A model generated the notes under the pieces. It was not told the origin of the DNA. It worked only from the letters and a program-made list of their open reading frames with translations, and made no database searches. Shown in pieces: positions 291-4,873 of a stretch of 64,000 bases of DNA. The translations under genes were made by a program, and so were the position numbers. The stretch is from a virus: IMG/VR virus record IMGVR_UViG_3300034685_000230, positions 25,472 to 89,471 of that record; one strand, given 5' to 3'. Every line of letters starts with the position of its first letter. Position 1 is the first letter of the stretch.

Positions 291-1454
291 ATGCACATAG
301 ACAAGGACCTCGTACAGAAGGCTGTCGACGAAGCCTTTGAGAAGATCATAAAGGAAAACGAGAGTTACGACGACAGCGAGGTAATATACTCCGACGAGCC
401 TAAGCCGGAGTTGAAAGAGATGCCCGAAGAGGATAAAGTAGAGGAAGAGGAAAACGTAGAAGACAGGGTGGAGGAAGAGGTTGAGGAAGCCATCGGTGAA
501 AACTCAGACTTTAACTTTCTCGGCTTAGACATCAGTATTGAGAAGACCGAGAACGGTAAGTTCAACGTTAAGATAACGAAGGCCGACAAGGAGAAAGTTG
601 AGGTACTAGACGTGGCTGACCTTCCGAACATCCTCGGCTTGATAGAGGACTTCTTCAACGAGTTAGTCTTAGAAGACACAAAGAGCGGTGAGGGTGAGGA
701 AGACGAAGCGGAGAGTGACGAGGAGATCTCCGAGTTAAACGAGGAAGACGACTCCGACGAGGACGAGCCTGTTGAGCAAGAGTTTGAAGACGAGCTAACC
801 GAAGGCTACCGAGCTTCAGGCTACCACACCTCGCTAGCCTCACTGCGAAGAAAATATGGGAGTAGGGTAGAGGAGATTCTAGAGCACGGGTTGCTGGCTA
901 AGGAGTTAGCGCTGGAGATGGTTAAGGGTAACTTAGTTAAGGGCACAGTTAAGGAGCTAGTCGACACAGTCAGGGAGAAGGACGCTCTGATCGCCGCTAA
1001 GAAAACCGATCTGCGGAAGTCAAGCGTTAGGTACCTCTACGCGAAGAAGATGGAGAGTAGCCTGAAGAAAGCCAGCGCCGTGCTGGGGTCGGCGATCGTT
1101 GACTTGAGCAAGCAAGTAAACAGCAGGCGGGTGTCGCCTGAGTTGGCGCGGAAGGCTGTGAAGAGGTACAAGTCTATCATAGCCGCGATCGTCAACGCTA
1201 ACAGTCCTAAGACCGTACTGGCTGCTACCGCCGCGGTGGGTAAGGTACGAAACGCTGTTTTAGCAAATGTTAACAAAAGTAAAATTAAACCCGACAGGAG
1301 TAGGAGTGTTAACACTGAGTTTAGGCCGAGAAATGTACTGAACAGGACTGGAAAGACTGCCAACTCGACTCTACTCTCCGGTAGGCGATATGACGGAATC
1401 GACGAGATGAGCGCTGAGATCCTGCGGATTGCAGGCATCACTGGTAACAGTTAG
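291..1454 (+). CDS. prohead core/scaffold protein
   Basis: Very acidic N-half, basic helical C-half, C-terminal EILRIAGI resembling T4-like core proteins; lies immediately before the capsid gene. Confidence 0.7.
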   Translation: MHIDKDLVQKAVDEAFEKIIKENESYDDSEVIYSDEPKPELKEMPEEDKVEEEENVEDRVEEEVEEAIGENSDFNFLGLDISIEKTENGKFNVKITKADKEKVEVLDVADLPNILGLIEDFFNELVLEDTKSGEGEEDEAESDEEISELNEEDDSDEDEPVEQEFEDELTEGYRASGYHTSLASLRRKYGSRVEEILEHGLLAKELALEMVKGNLVKGTVKELVDTVREKDALIAAKKTDLRKSSVRYLYAKKMESSLKKASAVLGSAIVDLSKQVNSRRVSPELARKAVKRYKSIIAAIVNANSPKTVLAATAAVGKVRNAVLANVNKSKIKPDRSRSVNTEFRPRNVLNRTGKTANSTLLSGRRYDGIDEMSAEILRIAGITGNS

Positions 1455-1504
1455 CTTACCAACATTTTAAACTAAACTACATAAACAAGGAGTGTAACGC
1501 AACT

Positions 1505-4500
1505 ATGGACAGAAAAGACTACACGGCTCTCCTGTCAGAGAGAGTCTGGCCCAGGGTTGAGAGACAGCTTTTGGGTGGAATCGCTGACAGGGGGCTTCAG
1601 AGAAACTTGAAAACTGTTCTCGCTAACACGAGAAACGCGCTTTTGGCTGACACGTCAATGCAGAACATGGTATACCTCAGTGTGGGGTCATTTTAGCGAG
1701 AGCTAAAATAGCAAATCGGGTGAATTGCTGGGACTCTTTAGAGCCTCTAGTGCTACAGCGTAGTCGGTAACGACAAGCGCGAAAGCTCTAAAAAACTTAG
1801 AGGATTAGGGAATCAGCAGCCGAGCAGCCAGTACACTGGTTGAAGGTCCAGAGACTACCGGAGAGATGCTCTTAGTTCTTAAGAGCGAGTTCTCTTAATA
1901 ACCGGCTAGAGCGCCCGACCCTTAGTTATAAAGCTAAGGTGAAGATATAGTCCATCCCACAGCGAAAGCTGCGGACAAGATGCCCGAAAATTGTACTACC
2001 GTTAGTTAGACGTCTCAACGTAGGGACCGCTGTAGGGTAACCTACAGTTGCAAATTCGGTGAATTGCTGGGAGCCTTTAGAGCCCTCGGTGCTACAGCGT
2101 AGCTGGCAACGGCAGGCGCGAACGCTCTAAAAAACCGTAGGGATTAGGTAATCAGCAGCCAAGCTCCCGAAAGCGCAAGATAGTAGGGAGAAGGTTCAGA
2201 GACTAGAGGTTGAGCCAGCGCAGGCAATAACACCTCCTCGAGCGCCGAATAACTAAAGCAGTATAGCTTTAGTTAATGATATAGTCCACTCTAGGGTGAA
2301 AGCCTTAGGTAGAGTGCTTTCCAAAACTGATTGCGAATCAGATTATCTCGGTTCAGCCGCTCAACGGACCAACGGGTTATTAATCTAGCTCGTTTAAAAT
2401 CGGGTGAATTGCTGGGAGTTCCTAAAGCTCTTAGTACTACAGAGTAGCCGGAAACGGCAAGCTCGAAAGTTTGAAAAACTAAGAGATGCAACAATGGATA
2501 ACCAGCAGCCAAGCTCCTGAAGGTACATTAAGAGTATGGAGAAGGTTCAGAGACTAGAGGTTGAGCTAGTACAAGCAATAACACCTCCTAGAGCGCCCGA
2601 CAAGTATTGAGTACCTTGACAATTAAATAATACTATAGATTATATAATAATTAATATAAAAAATATTAATATATTATGGGACAGGTGCTGATCACACTTG
2701 ATAAATTTAACCCTCATTTATCTTACCATAATATATTCAATAAAAAGAGGGTTAATTATGATTCAATGTCCAATATGTAAAAAATATTTTAAGCATATTA
2801 ATAACATGCATTTAAAAAAACATAATTTAACTACTGAACAATTTAAATCATTATATCCTAATTATAATACATGTTCTAAAGAATTTAGTGAAAAACGATC
2901 GGCTGCTAATAAAATACAAATGTTAAAAATTCATAAAAAAAATCCAAAAGAAAGATATGTTAATGTTGGTATTGGTCGAAAAAAAGCTTGGGATAATTGT
3001 TCAGAAGAAAGACGAAAAGAGATAGGGTTAAAAGCTACTGAATGTTGGAGAAAATATGATTTAAATGAAGAAAATAAACGAAAAAAATATAAAAAAGTTT
3101 CTAAATCTCTTAAAAAATATTATAAAAATTTAGATCCAAAAGAAAAAGAAAAAATATTGAAAAATAGTTTATTTAAAATTAGAAAACATGGTGGAGCTAA
3201 AATAGAAACTAATATTAACGGAAAAATAATTAAATTTCGATCAATACCAGAAATTTGGATAGCAGAGTTTTTAGAACAAAGTGGTTTTAGTTGGGAATAT
3301 GAAACTTTAAAAATTGATTATTTAGACAAAAATAATAATATGCATATATATATTCCTGATTTTTATATAAAAGATTATAATTTAGTTTTAGAATTTAAAG
3401 GTAAAAATTTTCTTGAAGAAGATATTGAAATATATAAAAAATACTATACAGAAAAAGCCGGATTTAATTATATTTTATTAATGTATCAAGAAAAATATTT
3501 ATTATTAAAAGAATTAAAAAAGATTTTTAATCTATAGTATTATTTAATTATTAGGTACTCAATACTTGAAGATATAGTCCGTTCCGTAGTGAAAGCTACG
3601 GAGTAAAACGTGGATTCGGTTCCTTGACGCATTTGTTGAACACATTAATCCAGCTACTGGCAACGTAAACATCTACCCCTGGTCTCAGGGTGACAGCACG
3701 TACTCTACACCGCAGAATGATTTAACGGTTGAAATTTCAGCTGATGGTACTGACACAAACTATACTGGAGTACTAAAAGACAGCGATAATAATATACTGG
3801 TACCGTCGGAGGGAACGCTCTTTGTGGAGATTGAAAGTTCCTCCGGTACGTGGACGAAGATAGCCGAGGCTGACAGGAGTGGAGTGCTTCACTCTCTGAG
3901 TTCCGCCTATAAAGTTATAGGTGTCGTTGACCCTAAAACACAAGAGTTTGTCGTTAACGTTACAGACTCAGCCGGCACCGTAGTCGGAAAAGCGCTTCGC
4001 TTTGCCTTTAAGGAAGACATTCAGAAGAACATCCCGTTCGGCGACGGTAAGACCTACAACACGATGCGGTTTGAGATCACCAAGATCGCCGTCGAGGCTA
4101 AGACCCGTAAGCTGGGTGCCACGTACAGCTTCGAGCTCATGGAAGACTACAAGAACGAGTTCGGTGAGAACTTCGAGGACAAGATGGTCGACTACCTAAC
4201 CACGACTATTCTGACGGAGGTCGACAGTGAGGTAATCGACACGCTGTTCAGTAAGGCTACCGTAAGCGGTTCTTGGGACGCCACGATGCCGATGACGTGG
4301 ACTCGCGGTATCAACCAGTGGTACGAGACGGTGCTGCCGAAGATAAACAAGCTGAGCAACTACATCTACCAGGCAACCCACGTCTCCGGAGCAACGTTCC
4401 TGGTCTGCAGCCCCGTTACGGCTACCATCTTCCAGAGCCTGATGCAGTTCAGCGGTAACGGTACGCCGACCGACCAGATGAACGTCGGTACCGTCAACAT

Positions 4501-4747
4501 CGGTACGCTCAGCGGCGTGTACAAGGTGTTTACGTCGCCGCTCTGCCCCGACAACAAGGTTCTGCTTGGGTTTAAGGGAAGCAAGCCTGAGGACACCGGA
4601 GCGGTGTACGCTCCGTACGTTCCGGTACAGCTCCACCCAATCTACTACTCCGAAGGCATGCCCTCGGTCATGGCCAGGACCCGTTACTGGCTGGGTGTAC
4701 TGCGGCCCGACTACTACGGGGTACTCAACATCAACGGCACCATTTAG
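1505..4747 (+). CDS. major capsid protein (T4 gp23-like), join(1505..1677,1983..2015,2317..2377,3611..4747), 467 aa
   Basis: Spliced exons read ...NMVYL-PKIVLPLVRRL-FPKLIANQIISVQPLNGPTG-WIRFLD..., matching the gp23 VRR..PxLIA...VQPxxGPTG motif; C-terminal AKTRKL and YAPYVP motifs; 1404 nt in frame. Confidence 0.93.
1678..1982 (+). ncRNA. group I intron 1 in capsid gene (305 nt, no ORF)
   Basis: Exon ends in U; P1 acct|ca pairs with tggggt; core elements GAATTGCTGGGA, AATCAGCAGCC, CCAGAGACTA, GAAGATATAGTCC; terminal G at 1982. Confidence 0.92.
2016..2316 (+). ncRNA. group I intron 2 in capsid gene (301 nt, no ORF)
   Basis: P1 gtct|c pairs with gggac (U-G at the splice site); core GAATTGCTGGGA, AATCAGCAGCC, GTTCAGAGACTA, GATATAGTCC; terminal G at 2316. 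Confidence 0.92.
2378..3610 (+). mobile_element. group I intron 3 in capsid gene (1233 nt) carrying an endonuclease ORF in the P8 loop
   Basis: P1 acgggt|ta pairs with tagctcgt; same core motifs; 16-bp stem caagtattgagtacct...aggtactcaatacttg brackets the ORF; GAAGATATAGTCC; terminal G at 3610. Confidence 0.92.
2758..3537 (+). CDS. intron-encoded homing endonuclease (Zn finger, basic linker, PD-(D/E)xK domain)
   Basis: AT-rich; CPIC...HLKKH finger; C-terminal YIPDFY...LEFKG; ATG at 2758 after an AAGAGGG RBS. Confidence 0.8.
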   Translation: MIQCPICKKYFKHINNMHLKKHNLTTEQFKSLYPNYNTCSKEFSEKRSAANKIQMLKIHKKNPKERYVNVGIGRKKAWDNCSEERRKEIGLKATECWRKYDLNEENKRKKYKKVSKSLKKYYKNLDPKEKEKILKNSLFKIRKHGGAKIETNINGKIIKFRSIPEIWIAEFLEQSGFSWEYETLKIDYLDKNNNMHIYIPDFYIKDYNLVLEFKGKNFLEEDIEIYKKYYTEKAGFNYILLMYQEKYLLLKELKKIFNL

Positions 4748-4782
4748 TAAGATTAGTAAGTAGTAAGTAAGCAACACTAGAA

Positions 4783-4818
4783 AGAGGGGGAGACTACGTA
4801 GTCTTCCTCTCTTTTTTT
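4783..4818 (+). terminator. rho-independent terminator after capsid gene
   Basis: agagggggagact-acgt-agtcttcctctct stem followed by a T run. Confidence 0.8.
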
Positions 4819-4873
4819 ATGCACTAGTGTAAAAGATAAATTAAACATATAGATTAACTAATCATAATTCGTA

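Follow-up and report, generated by a model that had tools for sequence, protein, structure and literature searches.

Three related group I introns within the conserved N-terminal stretch of the Gp23-type major capsid gene of an uncultivated phage

How can a phage obtain a full-length head protein from a gene whose reading frame is broken three times within its most conserved stretch, and what are the sequences that break it? The question is raised by positions 1505-4747 (+ strand) of the 64,000-nt stretch of DNA analyzed here (the window), which corresponds to positions 25472-89471 of the 89,471-bp IMG/VR virus record IMGVR_UViG_3300034685_000230, an uncultivated phage whose record is rated 100% complete. 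We found a Gp23-type major capsid gene split into four exons by three homologous group I introns, which are very probably mobile selfish elements lodged within the most conserved N-terminal stretch of the sole gene of this type in the phage. Gene calling gave only a 307-aa fragment (P0005) for the locus, as an initial annotation of the stretch had anticipated, and the positions which that annotation gave for the four exons and three introns all proved to be right.

Exon 1 (1505-1677) holds codons 1-57 plus 2 nt, ends in U and aligns to the N-termini of uninterrupted homologues, P0007 and P0008 included. Downstream of it lie intron 1 (1678-1982, site S1, 305 nt), micro-exon 2 (1983-2015, 33 nt), which codes for L-PKIVLPLVRR-L, intron 2 (2016-2316, site S2, 301 nt), micro-exon 3 (2317-2377, 61 nt), intron 3 (2378-3610, site S3, 1233 nt) and exon 4 (3611-4747), which supplies 378 codons plus the stop. 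Micro-exon 3 codes for FPKLIANQIISVQPLNGPTG and aligns to the T4-type capsid motif VRRxxPxLIAxxIxGVQPMxGPTG. Introns 1 and 2 are devoid of open reading frames (ORFs), and intron 3 carries an endonuclease ORF in its P8 loop. When the four exons are joined they give 1404 nt with an open frame of 467 codons, the uninterrupted product that had been claimed.

Exon 4 alone matched the Pfam family Gp23 (PF07068, curated cut-off 24.4 bits) with 167.6 bits (E 7e-49) over profile positions 55-347, and it also corresponds to phrog_138, a major head protein. The uninterrupted homologues, of 462-471 aa, reached 200-209 bits over profile positions 6-347. The spliced 467-aa product aligned to these homologues without gaps over all three junctions, and P0008 is nearly identical to it in the first 100 residues. 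Since no gaps occur, core-less mini-introns can be dismissed for this gene. Micro-exon 3 on its own matched profile positions 16-36 (E 3e-4), and the N-terminal motif VRRxxPxLIAxxIxxVQPxxGPTG becomes continuous with the protein body only once exons 2, 3 and 4 are joined, congruently with the earlier claim that the junctions rebuild a conserved gp23 motif. When compared with T4-type capsid proteins (from a Slopekvirus and from cyanophage P-TIM68) the spliced product scored 114-117 bits and exon 4 alone 95-100 bits. This alignment starts at residue 61, within micro-exon 2, where LVRRLFPKLIANQIISVQPLNGPTGWIRFL stands opposite MVRRAIPNLIAFDICGVQPMTGPTGQVFAL. The spliced product thus resembles gp23 more closely than the fragment does, and the proposal of a split gene was not refuted by this comparison. 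No second Gp23-family gene was found in the 89,471-bp record. These matches identify 1505-4747 as the single Gp23-type major capsid gene of the phage.

Next, we compared the three inserts with the group I intron model of Rfam (RF00028, gathering score 50 bits). Intron 1 matched with 76.0 bits (1668-1974) and intron 2 with 90.1 bits (2004-2308). Intron 3, split by its inserted ORF, gave 49.1 bits for the 5' part (2368-2657) and 28.9 bits for the 3' part (3506-3601); it was missed by the search at the gathering score and recovered in E-value mode and through its ORF-less orthologues. It falls just below the cut-off in one piece because of the insert in P8. When this 947-nt insert is removed, the remainder is 92-93% identical to 285-nt ORF-less introns located at the same codon in two related loci, L004 and L006, which themselves scored 93 and 86 bits. 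The E-values of the intron matches range from 1e-17 to 1e-22, and the same search showed no further group I introns across the whole 89-kb record. Together with the Pfam result, these matches confirm the initial description of a Gp23-type gene with three group I introns and micro-exons of 33 and 61 nt. The cores had been called near-identical, but pairwise identity among the three introns is 66-71%, which makes them homologous, and near-identity is confined to the P3/P4 and P7 segments of the core.

The splice sites were also as described for group I introns in the initial annotation, with a U-G pair in P1 and a terminal G in each intron. All three 5' exons end in U, the introns end in ...GATG, ...AGTG and ...AACG, and the same terminal G is found in the introns of all the relatives. 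In all 12 introns from the window and from relatives, minimum-energy folding of the splice-site regions predicted a P1 helix in which G faces the U of the splice site. Exon and guide change together: at S1 the pair ACCU/GGGU is replaced by AUCU/GGAU, and at S3 the pair AACGGGU/GCUCGUU is replaced by UGCGGGU/GCUCGCA or AUGGGU/GCUCAU. The P1 of intron 3 comprises 7 bp, and its core, P1 and terminal G are kept with compensatory changes across seven S3 introns. A consensus fold of six ORF-less introns contained 68 pairs, 33 of which stay paired through two-sided changes, with a covariation term of -12.2 kcal/mol. The introns of the window may belong to the phage-typical IA subgroup, as suggested by their closest DNA matches and by an additional helix located between the P7 and P3 strands.

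Each intron also closes the reading frame shortly after it begins, with in-frame stops 17 nt (1694-1696), 23 nt and 4 nt inside introns 1, 2 and 3, respectively. Since these stops lie 4-23 nt inside the introns, unspliced RNA would yield only short peptides and no capsid protein. We also considered inteins, frameshifting and recoding, and discarded them in view of the early in-frame stops, the matches to the group I model and the lack of the inserts in RNA contigs. A DNA search of positions 1400-4800 against phage records returned only short matches of 70-80% to intron cores, in phages of Staphylococcus, Bacillus and Brochothrix, and found no related capsid locus there. Stretches of intron core with 70-80% identity also occur in 'bajarodcaudo virus 2', and such stretches often lie within unannotated gaps or 'hypothetical proteins'. 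These sequence matches suggest that the phage records concerned hold unannotated introns.

To place the three insertions in their family, we mapped the exons in 18 related loci (L004-L021). No site is occupied in L005, L008-L012, L016-L019 and L021; site 3 only is occupied in L004, L006, L007 and L013, site 1 only in L020, sites 1 and 3 in L014, and sites 2 and 3 in L015. All three sites are occupied only in the window among the loci compared. Relatives with an N-terminal protein sequence 80-100% identical to that of the window have between zero and two of the introns, in combinations that differ from one to another, and the in silico removal of the introns from five relatives left clean frames of 463-471 codons. 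Intron 1 is 97.7% identical to the S1 intron of L020, an orthologous ORF-bearing S2 intron is present in L015, and ORF-bearing S3 introns recur in L013-L015, on contigs as long as 179 kb. The core of intron 3 is 93% identical in the window and L006, whose exons are 67-80% identical, a similarity that fits horizontal spread of the intron, with a possible contribution of structural constraint. Approximately one third of the related database entries are cut like P0005, and truncated entries with a start inside exon 3 or at exon 4 suggest that occupation of sites 2 and 3 is common in this capsid family.

Some features of the exons around the insertion sites deserve mention. The exon DNA identity between the window and L020 (5430-6436) is a mosaic, with 94% in exon 1, 85% in the micro-exons, 96% in codons 90-130 and 75-78% thereafter, which hints at recombination around the intron sites. 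We also considered co-conversion from windowed exon identity; there was too little sequence for such a claim, and the L020 mosaic remained the sole hint. At the S3 site (window 2366-2377, compared in L004-L021) the intron-bearing alleles read NNG GGT, which extends P1, and most intron-less alleles read ACT or ACC GGT. The L020-type site has GGG, without the U needed at the splice site, and L005 is intron-less yet identical to the intron-bearing exons. These allele differences may reflect co-conversion or resistance to the endonuclease.

The endonuclease candidate is encoded within an AT-rich cassette (~20% G+C) of 947 nt that occupies the P8 loop of intron 3 (2614-3560, + strand), as delimited by composition and by alignment with ORF-less S3 introns. 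The exons have 45-53% G+C and the endonuclease ORF 20%. This ORF (2758-3537, + strand, with AAAGAGGG upstream) encodes 259 aa, with a C2H2 zinc finger followed by a T7-endonuclease-I-like PD-(D/E)xK domain. The zinc finger is an N-terminal C-x2-C ... H-x3-H arrangement with a weak match to ROS/MucR. The nuclease domain scored 26.3 bits (E 6e-6) with Pfam Phage_endo_I (PF05367), below the curated cut-off of 29.1 bits, although this family is listed for the ORF in the precomputed table of the protein collection. A profile built from five paralogues matched the T7 endonuclease I chain 1m0d of the PDB with an E-value of 4e-6, and residues E165, D201, E212 and K214, invariant in the five paralogues, align to E20, D55, E65 and K67 of the T7 endonuclease I chains 1m0d and 2pfj. 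On this alignment we consider the 259-aa protein to be endonuclease-I-like, but not a proven member of PF05367.

A word-based homologue search for the endonuclease returned three proteins, and tblastn against phage records was more productive. Paralogues 25-30% identical to the 259-aa ORF are located in the ORF-bearing introns at S1 of L014 (290 aa) and at S2 of L015 (308 aa), and at all three sites the endonuclease ORF sits in the P8 loop. In the S3 intron of L013 (4765-6000) the endonuclease is split into ORFs of 141 and 137 aa and appears, from this arrangement, to be a decaying homing endonuclease gene. We infer that each intron lineage has, or had, its own endonuclease, passing through a homing cycle of invasion, ORF decay and loss. 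That a single endonuclease mobilizes the three introns as a unit was considered and left unsupported as a rule, since occupancy of one site is independent of the others and every site has a dedicated paralogue in some relative. The varying occupancy and the foreign composition of the endonuclease genes together are what would be expected of selfish mobile introns.

A consensus scan also detected a putative promoter-like sequence, TTGACA-N16-GATTAT (2616-2643, + strand, 10 of 12 matches), where the cassette begins, only just within the P8 loop and ~115 nt 5' of the endonuclease start. The motif CTTGACAAYTRAATA is found at the same place in the ORF-bearing S1 and S3 introns of L013, L014 and L015, even though the ORFs of these introns share only 25-60% identity. 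Either a promoter dedicated to the endonuclease or a conserved terminus of a mobile ORF cassette could explain it.

Are the introns removed from the capsid transcript in nature? The evidence on this point consists of assembled contigs from strains 90-99% like the window (runs X5, X7, X11 and X19). In the metatranscriptome of an anaerobic digester (X19), one 1346-nt contig passes from 1522-1677 to 1983-2015, to 2317-2373 and to 3610 onward, and all three inserts are absent from it at the predicted sites. In DNA from the same sample (X11), a 924-nt contig is unbroken from 1337 to 2260 and includes exon 1, intron 1, exon 2 and most of intron 2. Nine exon-1 variants are common to the X11 DNA contig and the X19 RNA contig, and X19 also has separate intron-2 pieces, at higher depth. 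In RNA of a different study (X7), one contig has neither intron 1 nor the intron-3 insert yet has intron 2, and another crosses the boundary between exon 1 and intron 1; the spliced exon 1 ends at 1677 and the sequence resumes at 1983. The DNA run X5 contains one allele that has intron 2 and lacks intron 1, and another that lacks intron 3. None of the contigs of these four runs extends over 2631-3114 or most of 3115-3598, in the endonuclease cassette, and we draw no conclusion from this.

These results make a good, if not conclusive, case for the splicing of introns 1 and 2 in nature, and in the X19 RNA contig both are absent at exactly the predicted junctions. The case of intron 3 is different. 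Its joint in the RNA bears the synonymous ACT GGG rather than ACG GGT, and the same joined sequence is present in the DNA run X5 and in L020. As this joined form is also found in DNA that lacks the intron, the RNA does not establish the splicing of intron 3. The junctions predicted in the initial annotation were thus recovered in environmental RNA for introns 1 and 2, but for intron 3 the RNA joint has a counterpart in DNA. Intron 3 is presumably spliced as well.

From these observations we propose the following sequence of events. The capsid gene would be transcribed as a single ~3.3-kb pre-mRNA in which each intron folds into its own ribozyme core. Free guanosine would then attack 3' of the exon's terminal U, paired to G in P1, the terminal G of the intron would set the 3' splice site, and the exons would be ligated; three such reactions would produce the 467-codon frame, presumably by self-splicing without the help of a protein. 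The zinc-finger and T7-endonuclease-I-like nuclease of intron 3 would most likely cut intron-less alleles during co-infection, and repair would copy the intron in (homing). Introns 1 and 2 would be counterparts, without ORFs, of the introns that encode paralogous endonucleases in relatives. The conserved gene region would offer the endonucleases stable targets, and precise splicing would keep the insertions harmless.

Several observations weigh against this interpretation. The presence/absence polymorphism is compatible with a side effect of the introns on the level of capsid expression. All the RNA evidence comes from contigs of a strain 90-99% similar, neither from raw reads nor from the window's own strain, and contigs may overlook an intron-less DNA allele present at low frequency in that sample. 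Moreover, one RNA contig (X7) keeps intron 2, and the intron-3 joint in the RNA most likely stems from an allele into which intron 3 was never inserted.

Another reading, which is improbable, is that the cluster of sibling introns sets the amount or the timing of the head protein, or acts in the competition between co-infecting relatives; nothing that we found points there. Sibling ribozymes separated by only 33 and 61 nt could, in principle, cross-react and give exon skipping.

Also improbable is the regulatory gate proposed in the initial annotation, in which capsid protein is made only if all three introns splice, so that head assembly is coupled to time, to the level of guanosine triphosphate (GTP) or to the state of translation. 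All three introns must indeed go and each has an early in-frame stop, so the yield would scale with the product of three splicing efficiencies; the X7 contig that has lost intron 1 and retained intron 2 means that unspliced intermediates exist; and the splicing of T4 introns is reportedly dependent on translation and on the growth state of the host. However, no intron is required, since the close relatives described above make the same protein with none, one or two of them. No riboswitch or other ligand-sensing RNA was found in the window, and the elements carry homing endonucleases of foreign composition instead. Sensing of GTP is also unlikely because micromolar guanosine suffices for binding by group I introns, and the cellular GTP concentration is far higher. 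The timing or GTP-sensitive gate is therefore unsupported, and we infer that the introns have no regulatory role.

It is very unlikely that the gene is partly dead, with intron 3 or the whole three-intron allele splicing poorly and the phage being defective or dependent on a helper. Such a state would accommodate the lack of support for intron 3 splicing in the RNA data, the score of intron 3 just under the Rfam cut-off owing to its insert, and the fact that the three-intron combination was seen in the window record only, among the records fetched. Conversely, the exons are all intact and show clear protein constraint, the conservation of the core, P1 and terminal G across the seven S3 introns extends to intron 3, and the endonuclease ORF is intact with all its catalytic residues present. 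In addition, the record is rated complete and the ORF-bearing S3 introns recur in the three related loci mentioned above. An assembly artefact, in which introns of different co-existing strains were stitched into one contig, is extremely improbable: strains with differing intron combinations do co-occur in samples and the micro-exons are shorter than a typical assembly word size plus read length, so that path switching is possible, but 83-100% of the words sampled from 1400-4800 occur in four DNA runs of one study (X1-X4), from which the window may itself derive, the X11 DNA contig from an unrelated study is unbroken over exon 1, intron 1, exon 2 and intron 2 (to 2260), and L014 and L015 each independently have two introns.

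The mobile-intron reading is thus the one we retain, and the surroundings of the gene can be described briefly. A Shine-Dalgarno-like AAGGAG (1487-1492, + strand) was read in the sequence 12 nt 5' of the capsid start codon. Directly 3' of the capsid stop codon, a hairpin followed by a T-run (4779-4823, + strand; 17-bp stem, -23.5 kcal/mol) is a likely intrinsic terminator of the capsid transcript; this hairpin is missing from the output of the consensus terminator scan. The gene directly 5' of the capsid gene (291-1454) encodes a very acidic protein of 387 aa without any Pfam or PHROG match, and its place before the capsid gene suggests a scaffolding protein.

The practical consequence is that gene callers give only the 307-aa fragment, and hence capsid-based phage classification and surveys by polymerase chain reaction (PCR) that span the VQP(L/M) motif will miss such genes or assign them a wrong size. 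The locus also offers a natural system for the study of intron mobility, with three related introns at neighboring sites, their own endonuclease paralogues and independent assortment in wild phages, and the anaerobic digester provides paired DNA and RNA evidence of splicing for two of them. What is known of group I introns is unchanged by these results, and a regulatory role finds no support in them.

How does this locus compare with known systems? Three group I introns in one gene are also said to occur in orf142 of the Staphylococcus phage Twort, where exon skipping has reportedly been seen; the gene and the host are different from those of the window, for which no skipping was observed in the present data, although these would not preclude it. 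The closest case in a cultured phage is that of Bacillus phage SP-15 (NC_031245, 25479-27996, our locus L025; SP15_032 to SP15_034), in which a gp23-like capsid gene is annotated as a joined coding sequence around an endonuclease insert. The SP-15 endonuclease has the same zinc-finger and Phage_endo_I architecture and is 27% identical to the 259-aa ORF over its full length (E 1e-20), and the 5' part of the insert scored 38 bits with the group I model. SP-15 shares with the window a gp23-like capsid gene interrupted by an insert with the same endonuclease type, but it has a single insert approximately two thirds along the gene, whereas the window has three in the N-terminal motif.

Introns in capsid genes have been published before (PMC3706429, PMC10136315, PMC7886860), and the rarity implied by the initial annotation was overstated. 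In the Zeta group of crAss-like phages the major capsid gene comprises five fragments and three group I-type inserts (Yutin et al. 2021, PMC7886860; review PMC10136315). The likeness consists of a phage major capsid gene split by three group I-type introns in metagenome-assembled genomes. The crAss-like capsid, however, belongs to another family (not Pfam Gp23) and another lineage, and its introns were recognized via the protein domains they encode, without RNA evidence, whereas those of the window are siblings within 94 nt of exon and the splicing of two of them is backed by RNA. In mycobacteriophage LittleE, the splicing of an intron in the major capsid gene was demonstrated by reverse transcription PCR and by sequencing the N-terminus of the protein through the exon junction (Pope et al. 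2013, PMC3706429). In both phages the intron interrupts the gene for the major capsid subunit, the 5' exon ends in U and the intron in G; LittleE differs in having a single 819-bp intron, tentatively classified, with a LAGLIDADG-like ORF on the opposite strand, and in being an HK97-type siphovirus. The Jug jumbo gut phages carry numerous group I introns in essential late genes, terL for example, with splicing validated by metatranscriptome reads over the junctions and with PD-(D/E)xK-type nucleases among the intron-associated ones (PMC12880540). Those phages have genomes of 360-402 kb with ~18 introns each, in contrast to the 89-kb phage studied here, with three introns, all in one gene.

Capsid-gene introns are therefore already known in other phages, and the locus described here is not a new kind of system. 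What is particular to it is the crowding of three sibling introns into 94 nt of exon of a Gp23-type gene, with an endonuclease paralogue of its own for each site and independent assortment among relatives, together with the support that DNA and RNA from the same sample give to the splicing of two of the three introns.

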